A stretch of 64,000 nt of DNA from Emiliania huxleyi CCMP1516 (Eukaryota), in NCBI RefSeq assembly GCF_000372725.1, contig NW_005202428.1, positions 707,221-771,220 of the forward strand, given 5' to 3'. The first letter of the stretch is position 1; every line of letters starts with the position of its first letter. The position numbers and the translations under genes were made by a program. Under the pieces are notes generated by a model. That model saw nothing but the letters and a program-made list of their open reading frames with translations, was not told where the DNA came from and did not search any database. Below are positions 16,553-59,746 of the stretch, one piece after another.

Positions 16553-18106
16553 ATGATGCTCGTTGCTACAACAGTCGCCCTACTGCTGCTGCTCGGCTTC
16601 AGCACGAGCCAAGGCGCTGCCGCGGCGGTGGACGGACCTCGACCTCGCTCCTTCTTCTGGTTCAACGATGTGACGCCAGCGCTGCCGCCGTTCCCACCAC
16701 ACCAGCCGCCGCTGCCGCCGTCGCCACCTCCACCGCACCCGCCGCTCCCGCCGCTAGCGCCGCCGCCGCCTTCGCCACCGCCGGATGAGTTCGACTGCCA
16801 CGATCTCGGCGGCTTCGACGCAACCATGTTCCGTGGGATGATGAGTCAGTACATGGAGCGTTTCTACGGATCTCTGCCGACCGCACCGCGCGAAGGCCGC
16901 GAGTACCGGCGGCTCGGAACGATGGAGATCGTGCGGTACAACCTGAGCTACACCAACATCGAGCTCGGCGAGGCAAAGCTGCTCGGCTGCAGAAACAAGG
17001 GCGCCAACAAATGGTGCGTCGCCACCCTCTCGCCTCCAGGAGATGCAACCCTCCTCCGTGCCCCGCGGCAACGCCCCGACCGCGGACGCGCCGTCCCGGC
17101 CGACTGTCCCGCGTGGCTGGCCTGTGGCAGCTGACCCGGGCTGGCCTGTGGCAGCTGACCCGGGCTGACTAGCTGGGGCTGACCTGTGGCAGGTGGGACC
17201 CGGTCGAGAATGAGCTCGACGAGATCGGCGACTCGGTCAGCGAGATGCTCGGCCCGCTCGCGCCGTACATCGGGCCAAGTAAGGGCTCGCGGCTGATCGA
17301 GTTCGACACAGTCACGCTGGAGATGGAGGTCGAGCCGAGAGCAGCCGAGAGCAGCCGAGAGCAGCCGAGCGAGTTCACCCGAGATCACCCCAGATCACCC
17401 GAGATCGCAGGTCAAGTCGTTCGGCCTGAGCATGCAGTCCCACGTGACGGAGTTCGGCTTCGGCGTCGGCGGAGGGACGGCGACAGCGACGGGCTCCGGC
17501 AAGGTCTGGCTCGACAACCTGTCGATCCGGCTCGCAGACGTGCTGGCGGGGGTGGGTGCGGGCGGGCCGCCGGGCGGGGGAGGCCCGCTCGGCTGCGGCG
17601 CCGATTTCGAGGTCGACCTCAAGTTTGATGGTACGAGAGCCATATGCGGAGTATACAGAGCAGCCCATTGCCTTCCCGCGACGCGAGTACCACCCGGTGT
17701 GTTCGTGACGCAGGCACCTTTGAGGGGCTTGGCTTCGAGCGGCTGTTCGGCTCGGGCGGGCCGCTGGCGCTCGCAGCGACGGGGAAGCTCCGAGAGAGCC
17801 GAGCGAGGTGCACTGACGGCGGAGCGACGCTGCCCGCCGTAGGCGCCCGATGTGACGGGCATGCTCTGCGACGGCCGAGAGAGCGGCGGCAGTCTCCTCG
17901 ACTCGGGCTGGCAGTGGCGCGGCCCAGGCCCCGCGCCGGTCGGCATCCGGCAGCAGACGATGACGTACCTGCAGGAGCGGTGCGACCCGTCAGACCCACT
18001 GACAAAGCTCTTCGAGCGCTGCATGTTCGTCACCGAGTGGCTGCCCGCGGGCGCGCGCGGCGCCGCCGCAGAGATGCGCGCAGCGCTCCACAAGGCGCGC
18101 GGCTGA
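16553..18106 (+). CDS. Secreted protein with proline-rich linker, function unknown (multi-exon)
   Basis: Signal peptide MMLVATTVALLLLLGFSTSQG, a PPSPPP tract, then exons in ORFs 17245, 17432 and 17852 separated by introns with tandem repeats. Confidence 0.55.
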
Positions 18107-20293: not shown

Positions 20294-20524
20294 TCGAGCA
20301 GCGCGCCATGCGGGCCTGCCGCCGGCGACGAGATTGGAGAGCCGACAGGCATCAAAGAGGTAGGTACTGAGGAGGGCCATCGCGCCCGAGGCGGTCCGCG
20401 CCGGCCCTGCAGGCCGTCTCAGAGAGCCTGGCGAGGCTGTACAGAATGCCAAGAGCATACTGAGCAGGCTGCCGTCGAGCGACGAGCCATGCTGGCTCGT
20501 CGCAGGCGATGAGGTCGAGGAGCC
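20294..20524 (-). repeat. 231-bp dispersed repeat, inverted copy of 60421-60651
   Basis: The reverse complement matches ggctcctcgacctcatcgcctgcgacgagccagcatgg...gcgctgctcga with only a few substitutions. Confidence 0.9.
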
Positions 20525-21254: not shown

Positions 21255-21354
21255 NNNNNNNNNNNNNNNNNNNNNNNNNNNNNNNNNNNNNNNNNNNNNN
21301 NNNNNNNNNNNNNNNNNNNNNNNNNNNNNNNNNNNNNNNNNNNNNNNNNNNNNN
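21255..21354. other. Assembly gap (100 N)
   Basis: Run of N. Confidence 1.
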
Positions 21355-21947: not shown

Positions 21948-23467
21948 ATGTGGCTGCCGCTGCTTCATAGCCTCCCGCAGGCGCACGTGCTGCGCGGCCC
22001 GGCGGCCGCGCCGCCGCTCCGCAGCTGGATCCTGATGGGCGGCGTATCTCCCGACCGGATGCCGTCCCACGGCATGCTCTACGACGGGTGGGGCAAGGAG
22101 CAGCTCGGCCACCTAAGCGACTCGTGCTCGCTGGTCGAGGCGGGGTACGAGCGGGAGATGAACCGCTTCGAGCTGGCGCTTGCGATCGCGCGCCGCGCCA
22201 AGGACAATGCGTATACCTCGGCGCAGGTGCCGCCCTCCCCTCCCCTCCCCGCGCGGCGGCGCCGTCGAGACCGGCCGTCGGCCGCAGCCGTCTTACCGCG
22301 GCGCTCGCCTCGTTCACAGGAGGCGCCCAGCGGCGTGATGAGCCACGGCGGCGTCGCGTACCGGCCGCGCAAGTCGCACGTGGTGGTAGCGATGCGCGAG
22401 CTCATCACAGAGGTTGAGGCGACCGGAGACCTCGCCGTGCCGCCGCCGCCGCCGCCGGAGGCCGCCGCAGGAGACGCGCGCTCCGCGGGCGGCGCACCGT
22501 TGGAGCGCGGCGCGCCGCCGCCGCAGCCCCGCCCTTCGCTCGGGTCGCTCGACGGCGACGGCGGCGCTGCGAAGCTGGAGGACCTGAATGCGATGCTGCT
22601 CGCAGACAGCCCGCCGGTCGGCAGCGTCGGCGCGGCAGGCGAGGCCGGTGCCGCGGCCGGAGCTGCGGCGGACGTGGACGGTCTGGAGGCGCTGCTGGCG
22701 GGCATCGCGGACTTGGACGGTCTCGACGAGGACTTTGGCGACCTCGCTGTCCCCGCCGACGCCGCCGCGGTGCGCAGCTCAACCCACTGCANNNNNNNNN
22801 NNNNNNNNNNNNNNNNNNNNNNNNNNNNNNNNNNNNNNNNNNNNNNNNNNNNNNNNNNNNNNNNNNNNNNNNNNNNNNNNNNNNNNNNNNNNNNNNNNNN
22901 NNNNNNNNNNNNNNNNNNNNNNNNNNNNNNNNNNNNNNNNNNNNNNNNNNNNNNNNNNNNNNNNNNNNNNNNNNNNNNNNNNNNNNNNNNNNNNNNNNNN
23001 NNNNNNNNNNNNNNNNNNNNNNNNNNNNNNNNNNNNNNNNNNNNNNNNNNNNNNNNNNNNNNNNNNNNNNNNNNNNNNNNNNNNNNNNNNNNNNNNNNNN
23101 NNNNNNNNNNNNNNNNNNNNNNNNNNNNNNNNNNNNNNNNNNNNNNNNNNNNNNNNNNNNNNNNNNNNNNNNNNNNNNNNNNNNNNNNNNNNNNNNNNNN
23201 NNNNNNNNNNNNNNNNNNNNNNNNNNNNNNNNNNNNNNNNNGGGGGGGGGGATCACGCAGCCAACGACTGGACACGGGCGCTGGAGAGGCGGCTAGCGAG
23301 GCGGTGAGGCGGCCACACAATTGGAGCGACGCGCAGACACACAGGCACACAGGCACACAGGCACGACTCTCAGCCCGCGGGGTGACGCCTGTGGTTGCGA
23401 GCAGGTGGAGCCGATCGACGACAAGCTGCTGCTCGAGCTGCTCGGCGGCGACGCGGCGCAGCTATGA
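21948..23467 (+). CDS. RNA polymerase omega (RpoZ/Ycf61)-like protein with N-terminal presequence; spans the assembly gap
   Basis: ATG at 21948 and GT-AG intron 22227-22319. NRFELALAIARRAK...KSHVVVAMREL resembles bacterial omega NRFDLVLVAARRAR...KTTVIALREI. Acidic tail follows; probable last exon 23405-23467 (VEPIDDKLLLELLGGDAAQL*). Confidence 0.6.
22792..23241. other. Assembly gap (450 N)
   Basis: Run of N. Confidence 1.
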
Positions 23468-30345: not shown

Positions 30346-31527
30346 ATGTCGTCGCGTCGCGCGCAGACGACGCCGTTCAACTGCGGTATCTGCCTCTCCG
30401 TTCCCGATGAGCAGGTGCACCAGTGTCGCAACGGCCACCTGTTCTGCGCGGGCTGTCTGGTCACACATCGTCAAAACTCCAACAAGTGCCCGCAGTGCCG
30501 TGTCGTGCTGCCAGACGAGCCTATCCGCTGCCTCCTCGCCGAGCAGTCCATCGCTGCCCAGTCGAGTGCATGCCCGCACTGCAATGCACCAATGACTCGT
30601 GGCGAAATTGCGGGGCACGTCGAGCGCTGCCCGCAGCGTCCCGACACCTGCAGCGCGGCGGCTTGCACGTGGCGCGGAACCGCAGCGGAGCGCGAGGCGC
30701 ACGAGCAGGCGTGCGCCCACGTGGTGTGCAGCCGAATGCTCAAGGAGCGGGATGAGCACTGGCAGGCCGAGATCACCACGCTGCAGGAGTCGATCGCCAA
30801 CATACACAAGGAACACGAGAAGCGACGCCTCGAGGAGCACTGCCTCTCCGCCTACCGCGATTGTGCACGGCACCCGCCGGGGCCGGACTTCCGCGTCAAA
30901 ATCGTCAAGCCGGATGCTGACATGCGGGATGCCGGATTTAACTCCGGGCCCATGGCAGATGGCAGCATGCGCCGGCTGCTTTGTCAGATCCCTGGGCCTC
31001 CGGGCACCGACTGGGCCGGCGGCTGCTTTCCGCTCCTCGTCGACTTGGGAGGCTACCCGACCAAGCCACCCGATTGCCACTTCCCCGCACGCGAAGGGCC
31101 CAGCCTGCTGCAGAGGCCACTGACCAAGAGTGCAAAGGTGCTGGCCCTCCCCACAGCCCAGCGGGATTGCCACGGCAATGGGTTCATGCACAACAACGTG
31201 TACCCCTCTGGCAAAGTCTGCCTGTCCACGCTGACACCCGTCCACGAGAGCGGATGGCACCCGTCCTTCACCGTTGCCGAGATCCTCCTCAGCGTGCAGC
31301 GCCTGCTCAACGACCCGAACAACGACAGCCCGGCGCAGTGGCTGCCCTACCAGCTCTACAAGCTCGCACGCAAGGAGCACGACAGGCGCGTCTGCGCGCA
31401 GGCAGCGCGATACACCGCGGCGGCATTCCAGGATCTGGTCCAGCGTCACTGCCTCCGAGCGCCTTTCGGCGTCGAAGGTTGGACGGCGGATGGGCAGCAC
31501 CGCATCGTGCGCGGCCTGGGTGGCTAG
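30346..31527 (+). CDS. Intronless RING + TRAF-type zinc finger + coiled coil + Ubc9-like E2 fusion protein
   Basis: RING: CGIC...CRNGHLFCAGC...CPQCR. Zinc fingers: CPHC...HVERCPQRPDTC...C...HEQAC. E2: CQIPGPPGTDWAGG, YPTKPP, HNNVYPSGKVCLSTL, WHPSFTVAEILLSVQRLLNDPN..PAQ and RVCAQAARY. Confidence 0.87.
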   Translation: MSSRRAQTTPFNCGICLSVPDEQVHQCRNGHLFCAGCLVTHRQNSNKCPQCRVVLPDEPIRCLLAEQSIAAQSSACPHCNAPMTRGEIAGHVERCPQRPDTCSAAACTWRGTAAEREAHEQACAHVVCSRMLKERDEHWQAEITTLQESIANIHKEHEKRRLEEHCLSAYRDCARHPPGPDFRVKIVKPDADMRDAGFNSGPMADGSMRRLLCQIPGPPGTDWAGGCFPLLVDLGGYPTKPPDCHFPAREGPSLLQRPLTKSAKVLALPTAQRDCHGNGFMHNNVYPSGKVCLSTLTPVHESGWHPSFTVAEILLSVQRLLNDPNNDSPAQWLPYQLYKLARKEHDRRVCAQAARYTAAAFQDLVQRHCLRAPFGVEGWTADGQHRIVRGLGG

Positions 31528-32339
31528 ACATGCACATGATACATAAATGAATAAAACGGACCTCCCAAGCGCGCTCATTCTTTTTATCGGACAACCTTCT
31601 CGGGTCCGTTGGCCTCTTTCGTAGGGAAGAATTTTGATACCCGTCAAGACGCCTGCTGGGGGCAGCTTCGCGATGAAGCCGTCTGCTCCCCCCAGCAAGG
31701 CACACACAAGACAGATAGGAGGAGAAAGGGGATGGTGGTGGGTTCGACGAGGCGAGAGAGCGCGCACAGACTGACGTCAGCTACGCTCCTGAAGGACACC
31801 TCTGAAAGGCACCTTCGTCTGAGGACGGCGTCTGAAGACGACGGCCTCTGGTCAGATTCGGTCTCGTCGCTAGACTCCGATTTCTCTTTGTCAGGCCATG
31901 TGCCGCTCGCTCGTCCGCCCAAGTGACTTGGACGCGCGGTCGAGGGCACCCCACCGTTCCTGGGGCGCGCTGGCGCTCACCGCTGGCGCTCACCAGCGGT
32001 CACCCCCCACCCATCCACCCTTTTGTCTTTGAGGCTGTCGCTCCGAGAAAACTTGTCTCGCAGCTGCGAGAAATTACCTTCTCGGGTCCGTTGGCCTCTT
32101 TCGTAGGGAAGAATTTTGATACCCGTCAAGACGCCTGCTGGGGGCAGCTTCGCGATGAAGCCGTCTGCTCCCCACTTGTCAACAGCAGGCGCTGGCGCCA
32201 TCAACGTATCAACGTTCCTCCCACATGATGTTGACAGGGTGGGCGGGTGGTCCATCCATTTGCTCCAAGGTAATCGCAAGCAGACCGCATGGCTTGGCTG
32301 CGACGGCGACTGACAGAACTGCGAGAACTGCGACGGCGA

Positions 32340-35300
32340 CTGCCAGGACTGCGATCCGCCTCGGGCATACAGGTAGTGCAGCGGGCACGCGGTCGAACAC
32401 GCCTTCAGAGCGCGCGCCGAAGCGAGCACCAACACCGCTCGTCGAGCCGCCGTCGATGGCGGTGGCGGCAGCCCCGCCGGCGCCCTCGAGAGTGGCCCAG
32501 CCGCACACACACGCGAGCGCTCGCCGCCCCCCCCCTCAAAGAGGCGGGGTGGTGACGGGCGCCCGCGGCTGGTGCACGAGCGGCGATGGTGTTGCCCGCC
32601 CGCCGAGCCGCGCGTGGGCAGCGCAGGGGCAGCGCGAGCAGCCACGACATGGTGCGGTAGCAGCGCCGCGCCCGGCGCACCAGCGGCGGCGGCAGCTTTG
32701 AGCCCGGCCGCAAATCGCCTCGGGCATACAGGCAGTGCAGCGGGCATGCGGCCGGGCACCGCCTCCAGAGCGTGCGCCGAGACGAGCACCCAATACCGCT
32801 CGCCGAGCCGCCGCCGCGGCAGCGGACGGCGCCGCGGCCCGGCCGGCAGCATGTCGCCAAGGGGGGGAGGCGAGCGCGCCCCACCGACGGTAAGGGGTAC
32901 TGCCAGGCCCACTCGCCGGGCGCCGGGACGAGGAAAGGCGAGCTGGCCCGATGGCCAGCTGACCCGAAGGCGAGCTGGCCCGATGGCCAGCTGGCCCGAA
33001 GGCGAGCTGGCCCGATGGACGCAATGTCCCGATGGACGCAATGTCCCGATGGACGCAATGTCCCGATGGCCAACTGACCCGAAGGCGAGCTGTCCCGATG
33101 GACGCAATGTCCCGATGGCCAACTGACCCGAAGGCGAGCTGTCCCGATGGACGCAATGTCCCGATGGCCAACTGACCCGAAGGCGAGCTGTCCCGATGGA
33201 CGCAATGTCCCGATGGCCAACTGACCCGAAGGCGAGCTGTCCCGATGGACGCAATGTCCCGATGGCCAACTGACCCGAAGGCGAGCTGTCCCGATGGACG
33301 CAATGTCCCGATGGCCAACTGACCCGAAGGCGAGCTGTCCCGATGGACGCAATGTCCCGATGGCCAACTGACCCGAAGGCGAGCTGTCCCGATGGACGCA
33401 ATGTCCCGATGGCCAACTGACCCGAAGGCGAGCTGTCCCGATGGACGCAATGTCCCGATGGCCAGCTGACCCGAAGGCGAGCTGTCCCGATGGACGCAAT
33501 GTCCCGATGGACGCAATGTCCCGATGGACGCAATGTCCCGATGGCCAGCTGACCCGAAGGCGAGCTGTCCCAATGGACGCAATGTCCCGATGGCCAGCTG
33601 ACCCGAAGGCGAGCTGTCCCGATGGACGCAATGTCCCGATGGCCAACTGACCCGAAGGCGAGCTGTCCCGATGGACGCAATGTCCCGATGGCCAACTGAC
33701 CCGAAGGCGAGCTGTCCCGATGGACGCAATGTCCCGATGGCCAACTGACCCGAAGGCGAGCTGTCCCGATGGACGCAATGTCCCGATGGCCAACTGACCC
33801 GAAGGCGAGCTGTCCCGATGGACGCAATGTCCCGATGGCCAACTGACCCGAAGGCGAGCTGTCCCGATGGACGCAATGTCCCGATGGCCAACTGACCCGA
33901 AGGCGAGCTGTCCCGATGGACGCAATGTCCCGATGGCCAGCTGACCCGAAGGCGAGCTGTCCCGATGGACGCAATGTCCCGATGGACGCAATGTCCCGAT
34001 GGACGCAATGTCCCGATGGCCAGCTGACCCGAAGGCGAGCTGTCCCAATGGACGCAATGTCCCGATGGCCAGCTGACCCGAAGGCGAGCTGTCCCGATGG
34101 ACGCAATGTCCCGATGGCCAGCTGACCCGAAGGCGAGCCGTCCCGATGGACGCAATGTCCCGATGGCCAGCTGACCCGAAGGCGAGCTGTCCCGATGGAC
34201 GCAATGTCCCGATGGCCAGCTGACCCGAAGGCGAGCTGTCCCGATGGACGCAATGTCCCGATGGCCAACTGACCCGAAGGCGAGCTGTCCCGATGGACGC
34301 AATGTCCCGATGGCCAGCTGACCCGAAGGCGAGCTGTCCCGATGGACGCAATGTCCCGATGGCCAGCTGACCCGAAGGCGAGCTGTCCCGATGGACGCAA
34401 TGTCCCGATGGCCAGCTGACCCGAAGGCGAGCTGGCCCGATGGACGCAATGTCCCGATGGACGCAATGTCCCGATGGACGCAATGTCCCACCGCTGCGCC
34501 CGGTGAGTGAGTGAGCGACGGCGACAGCTCTGAGCTCAGCCGCACATCGCCTCGGGCACGCAGGCAGTGCAGCGGGCGTGCAGCCGAGCACGCCTCCAGA
34601 GCGTGCGCCGAAGTGAGCATCAACGCCGCTCGCCGACCCGCCGTCGAGCGTAGTGGACTGGGCCCCGGCCCGGCCGGCAGCACGCGTCGCCAAGGGGGCG
34701 GGGCGAGGGTGCCCCACCGACGGCAGGAGATGCTGTCAGGTCCAGTCGCCGGGCGCCGGGACGAGGGGAGAGTGCTGCCACCGAGGCGGATAGCACTGCA
34801 GACCGCCACATCGCTGCAGAGCACGTCGGCGGCGGGCTAGCCCCGGCGGCACGTTGCGCGGAGTGAGACGGCAGCGGCGGCGGCGTGCGAAGGCGCCGCA
34901 AAGCGGGAGCGCCGGGCCAGCGGGGGGCTTGCGCCCAGGGCAAGTTCCTTGCCGAGCATTGGGCGCGACGCTCTCGTCGGCGCGGCCGGGGAGGCGACCG
35001 CGGCGCAGTGCCCGCTCAAGTAGAGCGGCGGCGGTGGCGGCGGCCCCGCCGGCGCCCTCGAGAGTGGCGCAGCCGCACGCACACGCGAGCGCTCGCCGCC
35101 CCCCCCCAGAGAGGCGGGGTGGTGACGGGCGCCCGCGGCTGGCGCACGGGCGGCGATGGTGTCGCCCGCCCGCTGAGCCGCGCGTGGGCAGCGCAGAGGC
35201 AGCGCGAGCAGCCACGACATGGCGCGGTAGCAGCGCCGCGCCCAGGGCACCAGCGGCGGCGGCAGCTCGGAGCCCGGCCGCAGATCGCCTCGGGCATACA

Positions 35301-38300
35301 GGCACAGGCAGTGCGGCGGGCATGCGGCCGGACACGCCTCCAGAGCGCGCGCCGAAGCGAGCATCGGCACCGCTCGCCGAGCCGCCGTCGAGGCAGCGGA
35401 CTGCGCCGCGGCCCGGCCGGCAGCGCGTCGCCAAGCGAGAGGCGAGCGTGCCACGCCGACGGCAAGAGGTAGCGCCGGGTCCACTCGCCGGGAGCGGGAC
35501 GAGGAGAGCGCGCTGCTGCCACCGCGGCGGATCGCACCGCAAAACGCAGCGTCGCCGCAAGCGCGTCGGCGGCAGTGAGCACGAGCGTTTCGTCGCGCAG
35601 AACGAGACGGCAGCGGTGGCGGCATGCGAGGGCGGCGGCGGCGCCGCAAGCGGACGCGACGGGCCAGGAGGCTCTCGCTCCTCGGGCAGGAGCCTCGCCG
35701 AGCACTGAGCATGACGCCCTCGTCGGCGAGGCTGGAGAGGCGAGACCACGGCGCGGCGCACGCTTAGAGCAGAGCGGCTGCGGGGCAGCGGCCTCGCCGT
35801 CGTCCGGCCGCACGCACCCGCACACACGCGCGCGCCGCCCGCCGCCCTTTCCATAGAGACGGGGTGGAAATGAGCGGCCGCGGCTGGCCCGCGAGTGGCG
35901 ATGGTGCCGCCCGCCGGCCGAGCCACGTGTTGGCAGCGCGCAGAGGCCGCGCGAGCGGCCACGCCGTGGTGCTGGCGGCGCTGCGCCCGGTGAGTGAGTG
36001 AGCGACGCCGACAGCTCTGAGCTCAGCCGCACATCGCCTCGGGCACGCAGGCAGTGCAGCGGGCGTGCAGCCGAGCACGCCTCCAGAGCGTGCGCCGAAG
36101 TGAGCACCAACGCCGCTCGCCGACCCGCCGTCGAGCGTAGCGGACTGGGCCGCGGCCCGGCCGGCAGCACGCGTCGCCAAGGGGGAGGGGCGAGCGTGCT
36201 CCACCGACGGCAGGAGATGCTGTCAGGTCCAGTCGCCGGGCGCCGGGACGAGGGGAGCGCGCTGCCACCGAGGCGGATCGCACTGCAGACCGCCACATCG
36301 CTGCAGAGCATGTCGGCGGCGGGCGAACCCCGGCGGCACGTTGCGCGGAGTGAGACGGCAGCGGCGGCGGCGTGCGAAGGCGCCGCGGAGCGGAGGGCGC
36401 CGGGCCAGCGGGAGGCTCGCTCCCCGGGCAAGCGACTTGCCGGGCACTGAGGGCGACGCTCTCGTCGGCGCGGCCGGAGAGGCAACCGCGGCGCAGTGCC
36501 CGCTCAAGTAGAGCGATGGCGGTGGCGGCAGCCCCGCCGGCGCCCTCGAGAGTGGCGCAGCCGCACGCACACGCGAGCGCTCGCCGCCCCCCCCTCAAAG
36601 AGGCGGGGTGGTGACGGGCGCCCGCGGCTGGTGCACGAGTGGCGATAGTGTCGCCCGCCCGCTGAGCCACGCGTGGGCAGCGCAGAGGCAGCGCGAGCAG
36701 CCACGACAGGCGCGGTAGCAGCGCCGCGCCGGGGTACTAGCGGCGGCGGCAGCTCTGAGCCCGGCCGCAGATCGCCTCGGGCATACAGGCACCGGCAGAG
36801 CGTGCGCCGAAGTGAGCACCAACGCCGCTCGCCGACCCGCCGTCGAGCGTAGCGGGCTGGGCCGCGGCCCGGCCGGCAGCACGCGTCGCCAAGAGGGTGG
36901 TGCGAGGGTGCCCCACAGACGGCAGGAGATGCTGTCAGGTCCAGTCGCCGGGCGCCGGGACGAGGGGAGAGTGCTGCCACCGAGGCGGATAGCACTGCAG
37001 ACCGCCACATCGCTGCAGAGCATGTCGGCGGCGGGCTAGCCCCGGCGGCACGTTGCGCGGAGTGAGACGGCAGCGGCGGCGGCGTGCGAAGGCGCCGCAA
37101 AGCGGGAGCGCCGGGCCAGCGGGGGGCTTGCGCCCAGGGCAAGTTCCTCGCCGAGCATTGGGCGCGACGCTCTCGTCGGCGCGGCCGGGGAGGCGACCGT
37201 GGCGCAGTGCTCGCTCAAGTAGAGCGGCGGCGGTGGCGGCGGCCCCGCCGGCGCCCTCGAGAGTGGCGCAGCCGCACGCACATGCGAGCGCTCGCCGCCC
37301 CCCCCCAGAGAGGCGGGGTGGTGACGGGCGCCCGCGGCTGGTGCACGAGCGGGGATGGCGCCGCCCGCCCGCCGAGCCGCGCGTGGGCAGCGCAGAGGCA
37401 GCGCGAGCAGCCACGCCACGGCGCGGTAGCAGCGCCGCGCCCGGTGCACCAGCGACGGCGGCAGCTCTGAGCCCGGCCGCAAACCGTCTCGGGCATACAG
37501 GCAGTGCAGCGGGCATGCGACCGGGCACCGCCTCCAGAGCGTGCGCCGAGACGAGCACCCAATACCGCTCGCCGAGCCGCCGCCGCGGCAGCGGACGGCG
37601 CCGCGGCCCGGCCGGCAGCACGTCGCCAAGGGGGGGAGGCGAGCGCGCCCCACCGACGGTAAGGGGCACTGCCCGGCCCACTCGCCGGGCGCCGGGACGA
37701 GGAGAGGCGCACTGCCGTCAGCGCGGCGGATCGCACTGCAGACCGCAACGTCGCCGTACATATTGGCGGCGGGCGAAGACGAGCGTCGCGTCGCGCGGAG
37801 CGAGACGGTAGCGGCGGCGGCGTGTGAGAGCGGCAGAGGCGCTGCAAGGCGTGAGCGACGGGCTGGGAGGCTCTCGCTCCTCAGCAAGCGCCCTGCCGAG
37901 CGCTGAGCGCGACGCCCTCGTCAGCGAGGCTGGAGAGGCGACCACAGCGCAGCGCGCGTGCAAAGCGGAGCGGCGGCTGGGGCGGCCGCCTCGCAGTCGC
38001 CCTCGAAAGTGGTCTGGCGCCCGCACACGTGAGCGCACGCCGCCCCCCTCCTCCCGGAGAGACGGGACGGCGACGGGTGCCCGCGGCCGGCGCACGAGCG
38101 GCGACAGTGTCGCCTGCCTGCCGAACCACAATAGGCAGCGCAGGGGCACCACGAGCAGCCACGCGGTGGTACCGGCGGCGCGCCCGGCGCCGCAGCGGCG
38201 GCGACAGCTCGGAGCTCAGCCGCACATCGCCTCGGGCCCACAGGCAGTGCAGCGGGCACGCGGCCGAGCACGCCTCCAGAGCGTGCGCCAAAGTGACCCT

Positions 38301-40520
38301 TCACGCCGCTCGTCGGGCCGCCGAGCGGCAGCGGACTGCGCCGTGGCCCGGCCGGCCGCACGCGTGCCAGAGGAAGAGGCAGGCGCGCCCCGCCGACGGC
38401 AGGAGATGCTGTCAGGCCCACTCGCCGGGCGCCGGGACGAGGAAAACGCGCTACCGCCGCAGCGGCGGGTCGCGCTGTAGACCGCTACATCGCCGCAGAG
38501 CGTGCCGGCGGCGGGCGAGCCCCCGACAACAATACGCGCGGAGCAGGACGGCGGCGGCGGCGGCGTGTGAGGGCGGCGGCGCCGCCGCAGAGCGGGAGCG
38601 CCGGGCCAGTGGGAGGCTTGCCCCCCGGGCAAGCGCCTTGCCGGCATCGAGCGCGACGCTCCTGTCAACGCGGCCGGAGAGGCAACCGCGGCGCAGTGCT
38701 AAGTAGAGCGGCGGCGGTGGCGGCAGCCCCGACGGCGCCCTCGAGAGTGGCGCAGCCGCACGCACACGCGAGCGCTCGCCGCCCCCCCCCAGAGAGGCGG
38801 GGTGGTGACGGGCGCCCGCGGCTGGTGCACGAGCGGCGATAGTGTCGCCCGCCCGCCGAGCCGCGCGTAGGCAGCGCAGAGGCAGCGCGAGCAGCCACGA
38901 CATGGCGCGGTAGCAGCGCCGCGCCCAGGGCACCAGCGGCGGCGGCAGCTCGGAGCCCGGCCGCAAATCGTCTTGGGCATACAGGCACAGGCAGTGCGGC
39001 GGGCGGGCGGCCGGACACGCCTCCAGAGCACGCGCCGAAGCGAGCACCAACACCGCTCGTCGGGCCGCTGACGAGGCAGCGGACTGCGCCGCGGCCCGGC
39101 CGGCAGCGCGTCGCCAAGCGAGAGGCGAGCGTGCCACGCCGACGGCAAGAGGTAGCGCCGGGTCCACTCGCCGGGAGCGGGACGAGGAGAGCGCGCTGCT
39201 GCCACCGCGGCGGGTCGCGCCGCAGAACGCAGCGTCGCCGCAAGCGCGTCGGCGGCAGTGAACACGAGCGTTTCGTCGCGCAGAACGAGACGGCAGCGGT
39301 GGCGGCATGCGAGGGCGGCGGCGGCGCCGCAAGCGGACGCGACGGGCCAGGAGGCTCTCGCTCCTCGGGCAGGCGCCTCGCTGAGCGCTGAGCACGACGC
39401 CCTCGTCGGCGAGGCTGGAGAGGCGGGACCACGGCGCGGCGCACGCTTAAAGCAGAGCGGCTGCGGGGCGGCGGCCTCGCCGTCGTCCGGCCGCACGCAC
39501 CCGCGCACACGCGCGCGCCCGCCACCCTTTCCACAGAGACGGGGTGGCAATGAGCGGCCGCGGCTGGCCCGCGAGTGGCGACGGTGCCGCCCGCCGGCCG
39601 AGCCGCGCGTGGGCAGCGCGCAGAGGCCGCGCGAGCGGCCATGCCGTGGTGCTGGCGGCGCTGCGCCCGGTGAGTGAGTGAGCGACGGCGACAGCTCTGA
39701 GCTCAGCCGCACATCGCCTCGGGCACACCGACAGGGCGGGCATGCGACCAGGGCGTGCGCCGGAGCGAGCGCCAACGCCGCTCGCCGAGCTGCCGTCGAG
39801 GCAGTGGAAGGCGCCGCGGACTGGGTCGCGGCGCGATCGGCAGCACGCGCCGGCAGGGGCGAGCCGAGCGTGCCCCGCCGACGGCGGAGGTGTTGCCGGG
39901 TCCACTCGCCGGGCGCCGGGACAAGGGGAGCGCGCTGCCGCCACAGCGGCGGGTCGCACTGCAGACCGCCACGTTTCCGTAGAGTAGTCGGCGGCGGGCG
40001 ATTCCCGACAGCACGTCGCGTGAGGCGAGACAGCAGCGGCGGCGGCGTGCGAGGGCAGCGGCGCCGCCGCAAAGCGGGCGCGACGGGTCAGGAGGCTCTC
40101 GCCCTTCGGGCAAGCGCCTTGCCGCGAGCGCCGAACCCGACGCCCTCGTCGGTGCGGCTGGAGAAGTGATTCTGGCGCAGCGCGCACTCGAGGCGGCGGC
40201 GGTGGCGGCAGCCTCGCCGTCGCCCTCGAGAGTGGTCCAGCCGCACACACACGTGAGCGCTCGCCGCCCCCCCCCCCCCCCCAGAGAGAGGCGGTCGGGC
40301 GATGAGCGCCCGCGGCTGGCGCACAAGCAGCGATAGTGCTGCCCGCCCGCTGAGCCGTGAGTGGGCAGCGCCGAGGCAGCGCGAGCAGCCACGCCGCGGC
40401 GCTGACGGCGCCGCGCCCGGCGCACCAGCGAGTCGCACACCGCCTCGGGCCCACGGGCAATCTGTGCAGCGGGTGTGCGGCCGAGGATGCCTCCGGAGCG
40501 TGCATCGAAGTGTGCGCCAA
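32340..40520. repeat. Degenerate ~740-bp tandem repeat (about 10 units) forming the element interior
   Basis: A gcagcgcagaggcagcgcgagcagccac-like marker recurs at ~32618, 35189, 35933, 36677, 37387, 38135, 38871, 39613 and 40366 (spacing 710-753 bp after the array). Confidence 0.85.
32935..34489. repeat. 49-bp tandem array (32+17 bp subunits) with a 475-bp higher-order repeat
   Basis: Unit atggccaactgacccgaaggcgagctgtcccg+atggacgcaatgtcccg, about 30 copies. The triple 17-mer and a ccaatgg variant recur 475 bp apart (~33570 and ~34045). Confidence 0.95.
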
Positions 40521-41107
40521 CGCCGACAAACATGGCGATCTGGCGATGCGCAGCGGCCGCGCGGCGCTCCACATGGCAGTCGCGGCCCAGCCAGAAGAGT
40601 CGGGAAGCCGCAGCGGGCTTCGGGCTGATGCGGGCCACGAGCGGGCGCCGCTGCGAGCACGGCAGCCACGGCAGAGCCATGCGAGGATCCCGTCTCCAGC
40701 GAAACTCCCCTTCCTCAAAATCAATCCCAAACTTCGACGAGGCGAGAGAGCGCGCACAGACTGACGTCAGCTACGCTCCTGAAGGACACCTCTGAAAGGC
40801 ACCTTCGTCTGAGGACGGCGTCTGAAGACGACGGCCTCTGGTCAGATTCGGTCTCGTCGCTAGACTCCGATTTCTCTTTGTCAGGCCATGTGCCGCTCGC
40901 TCGTCCGCCCAAGTGACTTGGACGCGCGGTCGAGGGCACCCCACCGTTCCTGGGGCGCGCTGGCGCTCACCGCTGGCGCTCACCAGCGGTCACCCCCCAC
41001 CCATCCACCCTTTTGTCTTTGAGGCTGTCGCTCCGAGAAAACTTGTCTCGCAGCTGCGAGAAATTACCATCCCGGTTGTGTGTGGTCCAAGTTGATCCTC
41101 AACCGCG

Positions 41108-42767
41108 ATGGCGGACGTTGCGGGCGATCAAGCGCCTCGCCGCTTCAAGGTGGCGGGCGAAGGCCTCGAACTGACCATCACGCTCGATGCCAAGTGGCAG
41201 GCCCGCCCGTTCCAGCAGGCTGTCGCGCTGCCGTTCGTCAAAAAGTTCAACAGCCAGCAGAGGGAGGGCGGGCGGCAGCTGAGCGTCGAGGCGCTGTGCG
41301 GTGTGCAAATCGACGGAGCCGCTCTGTCGCGCGTGGCGGACGCGCGGCTCGCCGCCGCCGGCCTTGTGGTGCCGCCGGCCGCGTCGCGCGTGGAGCTAAC
41401 CTTTGGAGAGCCGCCGCCGACGGAGTTGCGGCTGCGCGTCGCGTGCGGCGACGTGTCGGTCAAGCTCACGCTGGACAAGCGGTGGTTGGGCAAGACCGTG
41501 GCCGAGGCAGTCGTCAAGCCCTTTCTCTCTGTGTACAACCGCCGCCAGCCGACCGCCACGCCACCGCGTACACCAGAGCAGGCACTCGCCGCGCTCGCAC
41601 GTGCCCGCCGCCGCCCACACGACACCGCCCACACCCACCCACGCACGCCCACACCCCGTCCACACTCGCCCACACCCGCCCACACCCGCCCACACCCGCC
41701 CACACCCGCCCACACGCACACCCGCCACACGCCTCAGGCCGTCGAGATCCACGCCGACGGCGCAAAGCTGCCGAGCGCCAAGGAGGCGCTGCGGATGGGC
41801 CCGCTCGAGGCGCTCGGCTGGCACTGCACGCGCGTCGACCTCTTCTTCTCGTACGAGGCGGTGCGCGCGGCAGCCAAGCCGCGGCCGATGCTCGGCCAGA
41901 GCGTCGGCCACATATCGCCGGCAGACTGCCGCGACGCGACGGAGCTGTGGCCGTGAACGGCGGGCTCTCCACCGCTCTAAGCTGTGAGCAGGCGGACTAC
42001 CGCGAGGCGACCGAACTGCTGTGGACACACCGCAAGCTCAACAAGGCGGACGGCGCCGCCATCGCTCGCAGCTTCACTGCCGCCTCGCCGCTGCGCAAGC
42101 TCAAGTACCTCTACCTCTACGGCAACAGCCTCGGCGACGAGGGCCTCGCCGCGCTCGCGCCGGCGCTCAGGCAAACGGGCAGCCGCCCCTCCACACCCAC
42201 TCTCACCCACCCACCCACCCTCCCTCTCCGCTTCCCGCCTCGTGGGCCGCCGCTGTGTACCTGAAAACTGCTGCTGCCTGCACCGGCCTCCCTTCCACGC
42301 GCGGCCGAGACGGCCTACCCTCTCCCCTCCCCTCCCTCTGCGAGAGCGCGCCTCGGGCACGGCAGCGGCACGCGGCTCAGTCGCAACGCACGCGCAGGCG
42401 GGAGCACGCGCCCGCACTGCGGGAGTTGCACCTCTCCACCAACGGCATCGGATCGGAGGGTGTGCGCGCGCTCGCCGAGCTGTGCCACCCGTCGCCAAAG
42501 CTGGCGGCGCTCTCGCTGCACGACAACCGGATCTCGGACGAGGGCGTCTTCGCGCTCGCCGACGCAATCAGCGGCGGCTCCTTTGTCGTCGAGAAGGTCA
42601 CGCTGCACACCAACCCCGCCGTGAGCGCCGAGGGGGTGCGGCGCATGACCGAGGCTTGCGCCGGCGCCGACTTTGCGGAGCCGACGCCCGACCGCGGGCC
42701 GACCCCCTACATCCCGCTCGACCACACGCCGCAGCGCTGGCTGGAGCGGGGCGACGTGGACAAGTGA
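41108..42767 (+). CDS. Protein with two related N-terminal modules and C-terminal RNI-like leucine-rich repeats
   Basis: Exons 41108-41581, 41738-41920, 41992-42170 and 42398-42767 (three GC-AG introns). LKYLYLYGNSLGDEGLAALA, LRELHLSTNGIGSEGVRALA and LSLHDNRISDEGVFALA. Confidence 0.8.
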
Positions 42768-50074: not shown

Positions 50075-50330
50075 GATTACGGCGTGCCGAGGTAGGACAC
50101 GAGGCTTGTGCTAGGACGCAGGCTGCGAAAGGCTGACAGGCTGACGGGGCCGACGCCGAGGCGCGCGAGGAAATCGACGCCGAGGCGCGGATCTTTTTCT
50201 TTTTTGCGCGAGAGGCTTTGAGATTTGAGGAGGGGGAGGCAGCGCGGGCGGCGAGTGCACGTCGTAAGCCCCACCCGGCTGTCGGGCGGGCGTGGGGCAG
50301 CGTCAAAATTCTTCTTCCTAAAATACCGCG

Positions 50331-51608
50331 ATGTCCAATATGTCGCGCCGCCGCTCGCGCCGCCTCGCCTCCTCCTCCACCGCCACTCCCTCGCCAACCA
50401 CGCCGCCGCCCACCCGACTCCTGGACCTCCCCACGGAGCTCCTCGTGCGCGCCCTCTCTCGCTGCGACCCCGCCGACATCGCTCGCGTCGCGGCCGTCTC
50501 GCTGCTTTTCCACGCCTCGCTTGCGGCGGAGGGCATCCGCTTGTGGGCGCAGGAGCGCGGCTTGGAGCTGCCGGCGCTGCCCGAGGGCGAGAGCTGCACC
50601 GTGCGATGGCTGTGCTTTATGGCGCTGCTGTGCGAGTCCAACCCGCCGGCGAGGGCGGCAGCAGGCGTGTCTCACAGCGTCTTCATCGACGGCGAGGGGC
50701 GGCTCTCGTCGTGCGGCAATGCGCCGCACATCTATCCAGGCCTGCTCGGTCACGGCGAGGGGGTGACGCGGCTCAACACGCCGACCCGCCTCCCTTCCAC
50801 GCTGGGCGGTGAGCGCGTCGTGAGCGTGTCAGCTGGAGCCGCGCACAGCCTCGCCCTCACCGCCAGCGGCAGTGTCTGGAGCTGGGGCAGTGGAGGCTTA
50901 GGCCCGCTGGGCCACGGCGACGATCAGGCCCAGTGGCTGCCCACGAAGGTCGAGACCTTTGCAGGGCGGCGCGTCGTCGCTGTGTCGGCTGGAGGCGGCC
51001 ACAGCCTCGCCGTCACCGCCAACGGCGCCATCTGGAGCTGGGGCGGTGGAGTCTTTGGCAAGCTGGGCCACGGCGACGAGCAGCACCAGCTGCTGCCGAA
51101 GGAGGTTGAGGCCTTCGCTGGCCAGCACGTTGTCGCTGTGTCGGCTGGATGGTACCACAGCCTCGCCATCACCGCAGACGGCAGCGTCTGGAATTGGGGC
51201 GATGGAGACTACGGCAAGCTGGGCCACGGCGACCAGCAGAGGCAGCTGCTGCCGAAGAAGGTTGAGGCATTCGCTGACCAGCGCGTCGTCGCTGTTTCGG
51301 CTGGACGCGAGCACAGCCTCGCCTTCACCGCCGACGGCGCCGTCTGGAGCTGGGGCGCAGGAGGTGATGGCCGGTTGGGCCACGGCGATCAGCAGAACCA
51401 GCTGCTGCCCAAGAAGGTCGAGGCCTTGGCGGGGCGGCGCGTCGTCGCTGTGTCGGCTGGATCCAATCACAGCATCTCCATCACCGCCGACGGCGCCGTC
51501 TTTACTTGGGGCCAGGGCGGCGACGGCTGCCTAGGCCACGGAGAGGACCTGTCGGTCAAGCTGCTGCCAAAGAAGGTCGAAGGGTGGGCCTGGGCGCCGG
51601 GGCAGTGA
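50331..51608 (+). CDS. F-box-like + RCC1-repeat protein (6 repeats)
   Basis: F-box-like LLDLPTELLVRALSRCDPADIARVAAVS. Repeats of VSAG..HSLA.TADG.VWSWG.G..G.LGHGD. Intronless. Start is 50331 or 50340. Confidence 0.9.
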   Translation: MSNMSRRRSRRLASSSTATPSPTTPPPTRLLDLPTELLVRALSRCDPADIARVAAVSLLFHASLAAEGIRLWAQERGLELPALPEGESCTVRWLCFMALLCESNPPARAAAGVSHSVFIDGEGRLSSCGNAPHIYPGLLGHGEGVTRLNTPTRLPSTLGGERVVSVSAGAAHSLALTASGSVWSWGSGGLGPLGHGDDQAQWLPTKVETFAGRRVVAVSAGGGHSLAVTANGAIWSWGGGVFGKLGHGDEQHQLLPKEVEAFAGQHVVAVSAGWYHSLAITADGSVWNWGDGDYGKLGHGDQQRQLLPKKVEAFADQRVVAVSAGREHSLAFTADGAVWSWGAGGDGRLGHGDQQNQLLPKKVEALAGRRVVAVSAGSNHSISITADGAVFTWGQGGDGCLGHGEDLSVKLLPKKVEGWAWAPGQ

Positions 51609-51946
51609 GAAGGGCGGGTGTGTCCGTGTAAAGGTGCCGCTGCTGGTCTCCCAGGCCGGCCATCTCACTGGGAGTCCTTGGTTTGGTTTTGGTTTCCACG
51701 TTTCGATTAATGTACAGGGCTAGAGCCCGACACCACCCCACTCCCCGCCTGCGCTCCGCTGTCGTGGCTCGTGGTCGTGCGACGGTGCGAGCTGCGACGT
51801 GGCACGTGCGTGTCACGAGAGCCAGGAGAGTGCGCTGCGCCGCACAAGCCACAAGGCGGCGCTCACGTCGCGGCATCTCCGCAGTGCGCGCACCCCCCAG
51901 GGTCAGGGCTTTTTTGAAAAAAGGTTGTCCGAACACGAAAGTCGCG

Positions 51947-54430
51947 CTATCCCTTGATGACTGCGATCGGCCGCAGCTTGACGCACTTGCTGGAGATTCC
52001 CGCCGCGTGGCAGGTGTCGACGACCTCCGTCACGTCCTTGTACGACTCGGGCGACTCCTCCATGACCAGCTTGGGCGATGCGACGCGGATGGAGATGCCC
52101 TTCTGCTGCAGCGCCTCGAGCACCTCGGTGTAGTCGAGCTGCCGCCGCGAGCCGGCGCGCGACTTTGCGCGCCCGGCGCCGTGGCAGGTGCTGCCCCACG
52201 TGTCGGCCATCCCCTTCTCCGTGCCGGTGAGCACATACGAGCACGTGCCCATGGTGCCGCCGATCAGCACGGGCTGCCCGGTGAACTGGTAGTCGAGCGG
52301 GATGAGCGGGTGGTGCGGAGGAAAGGCGCGGGTGGAGCCCTTGCGGTGGACGAGCAGCCTGCCCGCAGCGGAGGGGAGGGCGGGTGGTCACGGGCGGGGG
52401 CACGCTGCGAGCTGCCGCGGCGGCGGGGCGAGCAGAGCCTCTTCGGCTTGCCGTCCACGAGGTGCTGCTCTACCTGTTCACAGCTGGAGGTGTGAAGAGA
52501 CGCTGTTCACAGCTTGCCGTCCACGAGGTGCTGCTCTACCTGGCGGGCCGGGGCGGTGCGATACCCACGCGCGGTCCACGCGATCAGAAACGGTCCGCGA
52601 GGAGGGGGGCGGCTGGGGCAGGGAGGGACGGCGCCTTTGCGATGTTGTGCGACACGTCGTACACGACCCCCATCTCGAGGTCGTCTGGCGTAGCGCCAAA
52701 GGTGCGCGCGAAGGCCTGGCGCACCGAGAAGGTGGCTCACCACCTCCGAGAGGCCGTAGCGGGAGAGGCGGGTGGGCAGGTCGAGAGGCGTGTCCGAGAC
52801 CACCCACCGCAGCGGCCGGGTCGGCGGCGAGGGCGACGGTGGCGGCGTCGGAGGCGTGGCCTCGGCGACGGGAGGGGCTGTGCGGCGGGGCGGCATGCCG
52901 CTGGGCGCGGCGATGCCGCTGGCTAGAGCGCGGCGGGGCTCGCCTGGCGGCAGAGGAAAGTCATCGAGGAGCGGTTGACCCACGCATAGTTCGCCGCGGC
53001 CGCCATGGCCTGCAGGTACTGCTTACCCTCGGCGGACCCGATCCGCGCGCACGCGAGCTGCCGGTCGTTGACTCGGATGTCGTCGCGCCCCATCGCCCGC
53101 TCCATCTGCAGCAGCGCGTCCGTCGCCACCTGGCGGCCACGGCCACGCGTCGCGGACGCGCGAGGGGCTGTGTCGTGAGAAGTGTCCCTCTGGGCTCAGC
53201 ACCCGGCTGGTCCGGAGTGTGGTCTTGCGTGTGGACTCGCGTGTGGCATCACCGTGATTGCGCGTGACACGCGTGTGGTCGTGGTGCGTGGTCCTGTGGG
53301 CCTGCGAAGGCACTGCGTGTGATCGCCCTTCTCCACACTGGCGTGAGCGTTGCAGTGGTCGCGTCCCACCTGGTGCCCCAGGGTTAGGGTTAGGGTTAGG
53401 GTTAGGGTTAGGGTTAGGGGTACGGTTAGCGTCCAACCTGGTGCCCCAGTCCGCGCGAGCCAGAGTGGAGGAGGACGCACACCTGGGCGCTTGGGCGGCG
53501 CGTGAGCGGGGGAGACGCCGGCGGGGAGAGACAGGCGCGCCCGCCGCTCTCCTGGCCCTCAAAGTCGAGGCCCATCTGCGCCGCAGCACGCTTGTCGAAG
53601 ATCCGGTCGACGACCTGGATCTCGGCGTAGTGGTTCCCAGCGCCGAGCGTGCCGAGCTGCGGCAAGCCTGCGAGGGGCGGAGAGCGCGCGTCCGGCACGG
53701 GCCTCCGAGGGCTCTTGCTCGGGCCCCGTGTGGCTCGGTCCAGCAGGGGGCGCACGCCTCGCTTCTTCGCCCTCGCCGAGACGGAGGCGGGGGAGGCGGT
53801 CAGCATCCTGCCGCTCTCCTCGCAGTGCTCCTTGTCCTCCGCCCACGCGTACCCCTCGCGCACCGACCAGTCCATCCCCAGCTCCAGCGCCCGCTGCAGG
53901 CTGTCCGAAGAGGACGGGATGACGCCCTGCGAGCCGACTCCGACAGGGATGTGGTCGAAGAGCGACTGCGCGAGCGCCTCGCGCCGGTCTGCCACCGCGG
54001 CCTCGGTGAGGTTGGTGCGCAGGAGCCGCACGCCGCAGTTGATGTCGAAGCCGACGCCGCCGGGTGAGACGACCGCGTCCGGGTCGTCCATGTCAAAGGC
54101 CGCGACGTTGCCGATGGCGAAGCCATAGCCAGAGTGGGCGTCCGGTAGGCCGATGGAGTGGCCGACGATGCCAGGGAGCGCGGCGACGTTGGCTATCTGC
54201 TTGAGCGCTGGGAGGAAGCCGGACGTGGACGAGGAGCCCGCGAACTGCCGCAGCTCCGACCATAGCAGCGGCTGCAGCGCCTCGTTGACGTAGACGTGCC
54301 CCGGCACCCGCATCTGAGGGACGAAGCCGAGATCAATGCGCCAGCGGTACGGCGTCTCCTGCTTGAGGAACGCGAGCTCGTCTTCGTAGCCACGAGCCGG
54401 GAGGCTGGATTGGCTGCTGCTTGCCGCCAT
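51947..54430 (-). CDS. RTCB: RNA-splicing ligase RtcB
   Basis: Exons 54430-53758, 53667-53552, 53482-53438, 53129-52944, 52715-52635, 52473-52439 and 52358-51947. [67 protein letters not shown] and LRPIAVIKG. Confidence 0.97.
53384..53419 (+). repeat. Interstitial telomeric repeat (TTAGGG)x6 in RtcB intron 3
   Basis: Six perfect TTAGGG units. Confidence 0.95.
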
Positions 54431-58321: not shown

Positions 58322-59746
58322 CTACCCCGCCACCTCACTGCCGCCCAGCGCCCACGCCTCGATCTTCTTGGGCAGCAGCTGGTTCGGCAGGTCCTCTCCG
58401 TGGCCTAGGCCGCCGTGTTCGCCCTTGCCCCACGTGAAAACAGCTCCGTCGGCGGTAATGGCGAGGCTGTGGCGGGCCCCAGCGGACACAGCGAGGACGC
58501 GCCGACCAGCAAAGGCCTCGACCTTCTTCGGCTGCCGCTGCTGCTGCTCGTCGCCGTGGCCTAGCCTGCCGTAGATACCATTGCCCCAGCTCCAGACAGC
58601 GCCGTCGGCGGTGATAGCCAGGCTGTGCACGAGTCCAGCCGACACAGCGACGATGCGCTGGCCAGCGAGGGCCTCGATCTTCTTCGGCAGCAGCTGGTTC
58701 TGCTCGTCACCGTGGCCCAGCCGGCCTACCCCCCCCCGGCCCCAGCTCCAGACGGCGCCGCCGGCGGTGAGGGCAAGGTTGTGCGCGAATCCCGCCGAGA
58801 CAGCGACGACGCGCTTCCCCGCCAAGGATTCGATCTTCTTCGGCAGCAGCTGGTGCTGCTCGTTGCCGTGGCCCAGACTGCCAGAGGCTCCATAGCCCCA
58901 GCTCCAGACGGCGCCGTCGGCAGTGAGGGCGAGGTTGTGGTCCTCTCCCGCCGACACGGTGACGACGCGCTGCCCAGCAAAGGCCTCGAGCTTCTTCGGC
59001 AGCAGCTGGTTTTGCTCGTCGCCGTGGCCCAACCGGCCACCGCCTCCCCAGCCCCAGCTCCAGACGCCGCCGTCGGCGGCGAGGGCAAGGCTGTGGAACC
59101 TTCCAGCCGACACAGCAATCATGCGCTGGCCAGCAAAGGCCTCGACCTTCTTGGGCAGCAGCTGGTTCTGCAGGTCGCCGTGGCCCAGCCTGCCGGCGCC
59201 TCCCTGGCCCCAGCTCCAGACGGCTCCGTCGGCGGCGAGGGCGAGGCTGTGCGCGAATCCCGCCGCCACGCTCACAGCACGCTCGCCGCCCAGCGGGGAA
59301 GAAGGGAGGCGTGTCGGCGTGTTGAGCTGCATCACGCCCTCGCCGTGCCCGAGCAGTCCCGGCATCCAGCTCTCAGCCTTTCCGCACGACGACAGCCGCC
59401 CCTCGCCGTCGATGAAGACGCTGTGCTGTGCGCCCGCCGTTAGCCTAGCCGGCGGGTTGGACTCGCGCAGCAGCGCAGCAAAGCACAGCCACCGCACGGC
59501 GCAGCCCTCGTCCTCTGGCTGCGCCGGCGGCTCGTAGCCGGCCTCTTGCAGGCGCAAGCGGATGCCCTCCAGCGCAAGCGAGGCGTGGAAGAGGAGCGAG
59601 ACGGCCGCGACGCGAGCGATGTCGGCAGGGTCGCAGCGGGAAATGACGCGCGCGAGAAGCTCGAGGGGCAGGTCGGTGAGGGGGCAGTGCGCGGCGGCGG
59701 CGGCGGCGGCGGCGAGGCGGCGCGAGCGGCGCCGCGGGGTGGACAT
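58322..59746 (-). CDS. F-box-like + RCC1-repeat protein (7 repeats), paralog of 50331-51608
   Basis: LTDLPLELLARVISRCDPADIARVAAVSLLFHASLA followed by seven RCC1 repeats. Intronless. Confidence 0.9.
   Translation of the reverse strand: MSTPRRRSRRLAAAAAAAAHCPLTDLPLELLARVISRCDPADIARVAAVSLLFHASLALEGIRLRLQEAGYEPPAQPEDEGCAVRWLCFAALLRESNPPARLTAGAQHSVFIDGEGRLSSCGKAESWMPGLLGHGEGVMQLNTPTRLPSSPLGGERAVSVAAGFAHSLALAADGAVWSWGQGGAGRLGHGDLQNQLLPKKVEAFAGQRMIAVSAGRFHSLALAADGGVWSWGWGGGGRLGHGDEQNQLLPKKLEAFAGQRVVTVSAGEDHNLALTADGAVWSWGYGASGSLGHGNEQHQLLPKKIESLAGKRVVAVSAGFAHNLALTAGGAVWSWGRGGVGRLGHGDEQNQLLPKKIEALAGQRIVAVSAGLVHSLAITADGAVWSWGNGIYGRLGHGDEQQQRQPKKVEAFAGRRVLAVSAGARHSLAITADGAVFTWGKGEHGGLGHGEDLPNQLLPKKIEAWALGGSEVAG

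Follow-up and report, generated by a model that had tools for sequence, protein, structure and literature searches.

A gene-less 9.5-kb element with split direct repeats in Emiliania huxleyi, probably a tyrosine-recombinase retrotransposon moved by a NADAR-bearing relative

In a stretch of 64,000 nucleotides (nt) from Emiliania huxleyi CCMP1516 (contig NW_005202428.1, positions 707,221 to 771,220; hereafter the window, numbered from its first letter), a 9,472-nt element bounded by exact repeats lies between two host genes, and raises the question of how a sequence without genes for its own movement came to be inserted there. The analysis described here, for which copies and alleles of the element were sampled from public sequencing runs and metagenome contigs, indicates (with a probability of about 0.83) that it is a non-autonomous retrotransposon of the tyrosine-recombinase (YR) type with split direct repeats, moved by a coding relative that has the same ends.

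The element is delimited by two repeats, each of which is present twice without a single difference under maximal exact extension: A (336 nt; 31743–32078 and 40733–41068) and B (98 nt; 31594–31691 and 32076–32173). Read on the minus strand, which is made the sense strand by the first open reading frame (ORF1) of the coding partner described below, the order of the parts is A1-interior-B1-A2-spacer-B2, and the internal junction of B1 with A2, at which the two repeats overlap by the 3 nt ACC (32076–32078), is equivalent to the element's two ends joined together. With the minisatellite and the assembly gaps left out, no exact repeat in the window is longer than A, and all 14 listed exact repeats of at least 60 nt fall within the element. 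Both copies of A have one version of that repeat in common, which differs from the A of the partners. An earlier reading of the letters (the original prediction) had proposed these two identities, this order on the minus strand and an element running from 31594 to 41068; all of this was confirmed except for the left end, which belongs at 31597, since the ACC at 31594–31596 is target DNA and not part of the element. The resulting span, 31597–41068, comprises the following parts, given in the sense direction.

40733–41068, minus strand: A1, the 5' terminal repeat (336 nt), whose 5' end carries the core (ACC on the plus strand)
40441–40732, minus strand: head, made up of unique sequence and a short, degenerate fragment of the ~740-nt unit
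34548–40440: eight GC-rich, non-coding units of ~740 nt (712–749 nt each)
32937–34489: minisatellite built from blocks of 17 and 32 nt (31.6 copies at period 49, with a higher period of 475)
32435–32935: partial ~740-nt unit on the far side of the minisatellite
32254–32434, minus strand: subfamily-specific tail, unlike that of the coding partner L004
32174–32253, minus strand: 80-nt tail common to the coding partner L004
32079–32173, minus strand: B1, the internal copy of B (95 nt; 98 with ACC)
32043–32085: B1/A2 junction, with four CGAGA boxes in alternating orientation
31743–32078, minus strand: A2, the internal copy of A
31692–31742, minus strand: spacer (51 nt), found with a few differences in two other loci (L005 and L007)
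31597–31691, minus strand: B2, the 3' terminal repeat
31594–31596, plus strand: target ACC, single in the empty allele

That the element is a real insertion with exact ends at 31597 and 41068 is established by an empty site in sequencing run X9, where two contigs (compared with 41045–41600) have the last 15 nt of the left flank and the start of the right flank adjoining, with a single ACC; further to the left X9 diverges from the window, as it does across the left gene. The earlier proposal that the insertion is young was also borne out. No target-site duplication of the true kind is present at the empty site, and the insertion was precise. The working start of B was placed at 31597 because contigs of a second run, X1, break there and because the empty site contains a single ACC; the breakpoints of these contigs coincide exactly with A (31743–32078) and with 31597–31691, and they lead into foreign flanks at both 31597 and 32078. 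Run X1 is RNA-derived, since its contigs skip a GC-AG intron (41582–41737) in the right host gene, which makes their depth unusable as copy number. A, B, the spacer and the tail all occur in this spliced run; repeats of the family are present in RNA, in a form that is not assignable to the window copy and with DNA carry-over possible. At the right junction, runs X1 and X7 are uninformative as to whether the site is filled or empty.

Between its ends the element consists of nested arrays, in which tandem repeat accounts for ~84% of the 9,472 nt (with array copy number taken from the assembly as given); the array interior that had been proposed is real, 'nearly all tandem repeat' corresponding to this share. 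The eight ~740-nt units are 77–96% identical to one another, and 104 of the 568 pairwise indels among them are multiples of 3. Stop triplets are rare on the sense strand of these units (26, versus 53 ± 6), a count that has to be read with the facts that the units are not independent and that most indels break the frame. One such unit is interrupted by the 1.55-kb minisatellite; elsewhere in the window, a 24-nt tandem repeat at 17115–17184 has the word GCAGCTGACCCG in common with it, with no blast match between the two at E 0.01. Of the head (40441–40732), ~30 nt beside A1 alone resemble the leader of the partner, and no remnant of ORF1 is present there. Among 34 long interior frames, 31 have no Pfam match, and the matches of the other three (to PliI and UnbV) were rejected as repeat artefacts, all of them crossing the minisatellite and none of the stretches passing alone. 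No reverse transcriptase (RT), RNase H or recombinase was found in the interior, Pfam and tblastn agreeing with the original prediction on this point, and an Rfam scan returned nothing at E 1 or better.

A coding partner that shares A, B and tail sequence with the element was found in two loci: L004 matches 31853–32253 with 96.8% identity over 402 nt, and L008 is similar, which sustains the suggestion that the window element was mobilised in trans. On the sense strand of both loci, a 906-amino-acid (aa) ORF1 starts ~70 nt past A, and its relatives fall into four clusters (of 94, 58, 4 and 4 members, at 73–97% identity), on contigs that reach 11–14.8 kb at the longest. ORF1 has no family match, and neither its whole length nor its C-terminus gave a usable match in the ESM Atlas; its AlphaFold model was too poor (predicted local distance difference test, pLDDT, 31) and yielded no fold match. 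By its position ORF1 is putatively Gag-like, and its size and a signal of the frameshift type also fit. Near its end, an in-frame G GGT TTT is followed after 5 nt by a 14-bp stem with one mismatch, and ORF2 lies in the −1 frame after this slippery site. The pattern X XXY YYZ is that of known slippery sites for −1 frameshifting, and the heptamer with its stem probably represents a programmed −1 frameshift. A C-terminus of the form QGFR.PT.Q is present in 28 of 28 full-length ORF1 proteins. ORF2 opens with a NADAR domain, which was detected with E 3e-11 on the L004 contig (which ends there) and is complete in the relative P0049 (E 5e-28). NADARs strip ADP-ribose from guanine (PMC11125620), and that of the partner is predicted to remove ADP-ribose from nucleic acid. 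Positions 1–150 of L004, just upstream of the shared 80-nt tail, are occupied by a tandem repeat with a different unit of ~27 nt.

Additional loci were collected from metagenomes with a pattern of 20 nt that covered the end of A and included its ACC. A is carried by 10 of the 11 loci matched, in which 11 matches were counted; eight of these lead into unrelated flanks, all at the same terminal base, and three into B, and the further copies with the same termini that had been anticipated are represented by such insertions at other loci. One locus (L005) is a solo B-spacer-A flanked by host sequence (662–1159), beside a host gene and with its own variant of the inner part of A, while another (L007) has the order A-end, B, spacer, A, flank. 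Two matches of 20–21 nt (L011, from metagenomes, and L012, the sole match in genome_contigs) were dropped as due to chance, and no match was obtained in viral_contigs by the DNA pattern, by ORF1, by the ORF1 alignment or by P0066 (a protein described below). Compared with the B arm (TTCTCGG), the nine right flanks (eight from these loci, and that of the window) are identical at 29 of 63 positions, where 16.5 would be expected (p 0.0004); T at position 2, in seven of the nine, and G at position 6, in six, account for most of the agreement.

The structural test for DIRS elements with split direct repeats gives a clear outcome, in that A1 equals A2, B1 equals B2 and the order is A1-interior-B1-A2-B2; non-autonomy is evident from the lack of an RT, RNase H or YR of its own, together with termini ~97% identical to those of the coding L004. 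The layout A1..B1A2..B2 is described for Ngaro, PAT and VIPER elements (PMC8547959, PMC6681497); split repeats arose more than once, and a methyltransferase decides between Ngaro and PAT (PMC4157794, PMC9210276). By its structure the element falls into the split-direct-repeat group that includes both Ngaro and PAT, ORF2 of the partner being known as far as its NADAR. A long terminal repeat (LTR) retrotransposon, of the kinds termed large retrotransposon derivative (LARD) or terminal-repeat retrotransposon in miniature (TRIM), was considered and rejected: A is without TG/CA ends, the element runs 146 nt past A2, and there is no 4–6-bp target-site duplication. For a Penelope-like element, which would have a pseudo-LTR with a hammerhead ribozyme, Rfam gave no match at E 1 or better, and the precise, fixed ends argue against it.

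Under the model developed for DIRS and Ngaro elements, a transcript running from A1 to B2 would be packaged by the Gag of the partner and copied by its RT, with the internal B1A2 copy rebuilding both ends; the complementary DNA (cDNA) would then circularise, B would meet A and the site CGAGAA-ATTACC-TTCTCG would be re-created; and the partner's recombinase would cross that junction site with a chromosomal site loosely resembling the B arm. Translation with a −1 frameshift would yield ORF2 as part of a Gag-Pol fusion, its NADAR followed by RT, RNase H and recombinase. The last two of the four CGAGA boxes at the junction flank the 6-nt core ATTACC in a manner that resembles the core site of a tyrosine recombinase. 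If the ends are regenerated at each jump, identical pairs of A and of B are to be expected around an old and diverged interior; the end pairs are 100% identical, versus 77–96% among the interior units, and the identical ends, the old interior and the window-specific version of A fit such regeneration.

The existence of a polyprotein of the required kind is suggested by P0066, which came from a full search of representative sequences with P0049 (150 matches, of which 30 were submitted to Pfam and all 150 to a motif screen) and is the only one among these matches in which RT-like and HxxR motifs occur together. Its principal features are these.

P0066: 3,220 aa, a single ORF on a 12.5-kb contig, outside the window
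P0066, residues 350–520: NADAR
P0066, residues 2954–3053: Phage_integrase (E 2e-4)

The R, K, HxxR and Y motifs of a recombinase are found at residues 2876–3053, and residues 1586, 1633, 1663 and 1713 mark what are presumably RNase H motifs. The N-terminus is OTU-like by eye, ~1,000 residues are without an assigned domain, and neither a [DN]PP[YFW] motif nor a methyltransferase match is present. For residues 1041–1760, the AlphaFold model reached a pLDDT of 41, and Foldseek and VIA gave helical-bundle noise only. P0066 indicates that a polyprotein with a NADAR, RT- and RNase H-like motifs and a tyrosine recombinase exists, and by analogy the same arrangement may be present in the partner.

A number of observations weigh against the reading of the element as a retrotransposon moved by this partner. 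The autonomous partner foreseen in the original prediction was to encode Gag, RT-RNase H and YR; a putatively Gag-like ORF1 and an ORF2 that starts with a NADAR were recovered, but none of RT, RNase H or recombinase was observed in it, L004 stopping inside the NADAR. No ORF2 relatives of 588–2000 aa were found, an outcome for which a Pol above 2000 aa would account, and shorter ORF2 matches appear truncated or frameshifted. The stem at the frameshift site is weak when compared with shuffled sequences (z −1.6). In P0066, the integrase score of 21.5 bits is under the Pfam cutoff of 27.1; the residues which we take to be RT motifs (1267, 1326, 1415 and 1460) are without profile support, with no RT match in Pfam, PHROGs, NCBIfam or PADLOC; similarity to the partner extends over the NADAR alone (41–43%); and a quick tree built from 70 NADAR domains does not unite the two (2 changes), although they may have one origin. 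Both filled junctions are found in run X6, but reach just 30 and 24 letters into the element (the bar being 31), and X6 may be the source of the assembly itself. On the sense strand, L004 and L008 have the non-canonical order tail-B-A-ORF1; the orders in these two loci and in L007 may have arisen as short-read misjoins through either repeat, as circles, or by tandem or permuted insertion. In four of the nine right flanks the first letters are TT; these may stem from the element, in which case they would inflate the match to the B arm. Finally, of three left flanks one has ACC (that of the window) and the others ATT and TGC, so that the rule of an identical trinucleotide in target and circle junction, stated for DIRS1-like elements (PMC7192593, PMC3266345), is kept at this locus but not at every site.

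For the integration step, a variant was considered in which the four CGAGA boxes of a single-stranded cDNA pair up as a hairpin that serves the recombinase as its site. One pair of strands would be exchanged, replication would resolve the product, and the A end would always keep the core of the element; we regard this proposal as unlikely. Folded single-strand recombinase sites are used by integrons (attC) and by CTX phage. The junction folds well relative to its own shuffles (z −3.6 as RNA; −2.6 and −3.0 as DNA), and its plus strand forms two stems of 6–7 bp around an unpaired core, the outer stem requiring the B-A join; the left flanks noted above lack a strict core match, and the cDNA of DIRS-1 is mainly a linear single strand (PMC7192593). 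Set against these points, the fold ranks only sixth among 62 equal windows across the repeats, the minus strand as DNA gives two separate hairpins, a change in box 1 of L006 is uncompensated, and the ACC kept at A ends was part of the search pattern.

An improbable alternative holds that a coding copy inserted first and that its genes were later replaced by satellite DNA, without any movement in trans. It draws on the observation, unfavourable to mobilisation by a partner, that no second full copy of the window interior was seen, blastn of the interior against L001–L011 being empty. Such a history is opposed by the failure of tblastn to detect ORF1, ORF2 or P0066 anywhere in the window, by an interior divergence far older than the 100% identical ends, and by the subfamily-specific tail, which up to 32400 is without differences in contigs of all four runs examined and stands at raised depth relative to the flank (83.5 versus 7–12 in X6, and 676 versus 57–71 in X9, contig depth being a hint and not a copy number).

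Less probable again is a DNA-based circle mobilised by a tyrosine recombinase with no RNA step, in which the split repeats would have arisen by tandem or nested integration into the element's own junction. The lack of a visible RT in the partner, the non-canonical orders in L004, L007 and L008, and the fact that the junction itself would be the best recombinase target are all in its favour; against it stand the arrangement of a gag-like ORF with slippery site and stem, which is that of retroelements, the order A1..B1A2..B2, which is a retroelement hallmark, and the union in P0066 of NADAR, RT-like motifs and recombinase in one ORF. That the repeats are an assembly artefact is scarcely credible, for although there are N gaps in the window and the whole element is not crossed by any read or contig, the closure of the empty site falls precisely on the predicted ends, and independent assemblies again show A, B, the spacer and the join between A and B, array lengths alone being open to error.

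The retrotransposon so interpreted is closely flanked on both sides by host genes.

30346–31527, plus strand: left host gene, with a RING and a ubiquitin-conjugating domain
41108–41956, plus strand: right host gene, with no Pfam family above cutoff and a spliced GC-AG intron at 41582–41737

The element begins ~70 nt beyond the stop of the left gene, and the ATG of the right gene is 40 nt from it; the GC-AG intron of the latter is filled with a 10-nt repeat. The empty site (31589–31596 joined to 41069–41079) contains a small inverted repeat, ACAACC-5 nt-GGTTGT, which may be due to chance. Elsewhere in the window, a 231-nt sequence occurs as inverted duplicates (20294–20524 and 60421–60651; 97%) with a 69% tandem neighbour (60600–60829) and is possibly a mobile repeat; two inverted paralogous genes (50327–51609 and 58334–59750; ~78% alike) have 156-nt repeats that are RCC1-like by eye; coding-type repeats of 99 nt at 3364–4251 are ankyrin-like by eye; an interstitial telomere-like run, AGGGTT x8, is found at 53380–53429; and N runs (assembly gaps) occupy 21255–21354 and 22792–23241.

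Among known systems, TOC1 combines split direct repeats, a spacer between A2 and B2, and an internal tandem array. By description the window element resembles it in being non-coding, in its split direct repeats, A2-B2 spacer and internal array, and in its apparent mobilisation in trans, and differs from it in its larger size (9.5 kb), in having two nested arrays and in a partner whose ORF2 begins with a NADAR. TOC1 is an active non-autonomous DIRS retrotransposon of Chlamydomonas reinhardtii (10.1101/2022.06.16.496473). The Ngaro1–4 elements of Cafeteria burkhardae have the layout A1-[ORFs]-B1A2B2 in ~6 kb, with RT and RNase H in ORF2 and the recombinase in ORF3; they resemble the present family in an ORF1 that looks Gag-like (here putatively so), in their deletion derivatives and in their solo AB repeats, to which L005 may be compared (PMC8547959), whereas here the ORF1 contigs reach 11–14.8 kb, ORF2 begins with a NADAR, and the recombinase of P0066 is not split off into an ORF of its own. 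The kinetoplastid VIPER/SIRE and TATE elements have the same repeat order, SIRE being an A2-spacer-B2 as in L005, and two copies of TATE have a single ORF; they belong to another host group, and a NADAR is not mentioned for them in the available text (PMC6681497). A NADAR is located at the N-terminus of an Ectocarpus Gypsy Pol and in ORF1 of an oyster Tx1 long interspersed nuclear element (LINE) (PMC12477816), an N-terminal position like that found here, although those are LTR and LINE elements and the present one has split direct repeats. YR retrotransposons have been reported in haptophytes (PMC3266345, 10.1101/2022.10.25.513657), a group of which the marine runs, a GC content of ~65% and the GC-AG intron are reminiscent; no report of a NADAR in a YR retrotransposon appeared among the papers listed in the literature searched, which lay outside Repbase, most subscription papers and supplements.

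The gene-less element itself is of a known kind (as are TOC1, SIRE and solo AB repeats), and the new part is its NADAR-bearing helper. More tentatively, and with considerable doubt, one may envisage a lineage of giant YR retrotransposons (11–14 kb) with a frameshifted Gag-Pol of the order NADAR-RT-RNase H-recombinase, in which the NADAR would strip host-added ADP-ribose from the RNA or single-stranded cDNA of the element as a counter-defence, while the 9.5-kb element would ride along by means of cis signals that total just ~600 nt, among them a four-box junction whose integration may proceed as a folded single strand. The element and its partner together narrow down which cis signals are needed under a replication model that has seen little testing, the parts that they have in common being just A, B, the 51-nt spacer and the 80-nt tail, and the family supplies an empty site and nine target sequences. 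A NADAR in a split-direct-repeat element would make this the third class of retrotransposon with that domain, after Gypsy and Tx1 (PMC12477816). Its repeated capture by retroelements makes a host defence against transposons by ADP-ribosylation a testable idea, and the counter-defence reading, if true, would imply that such a defence, so far undescribed, exists.

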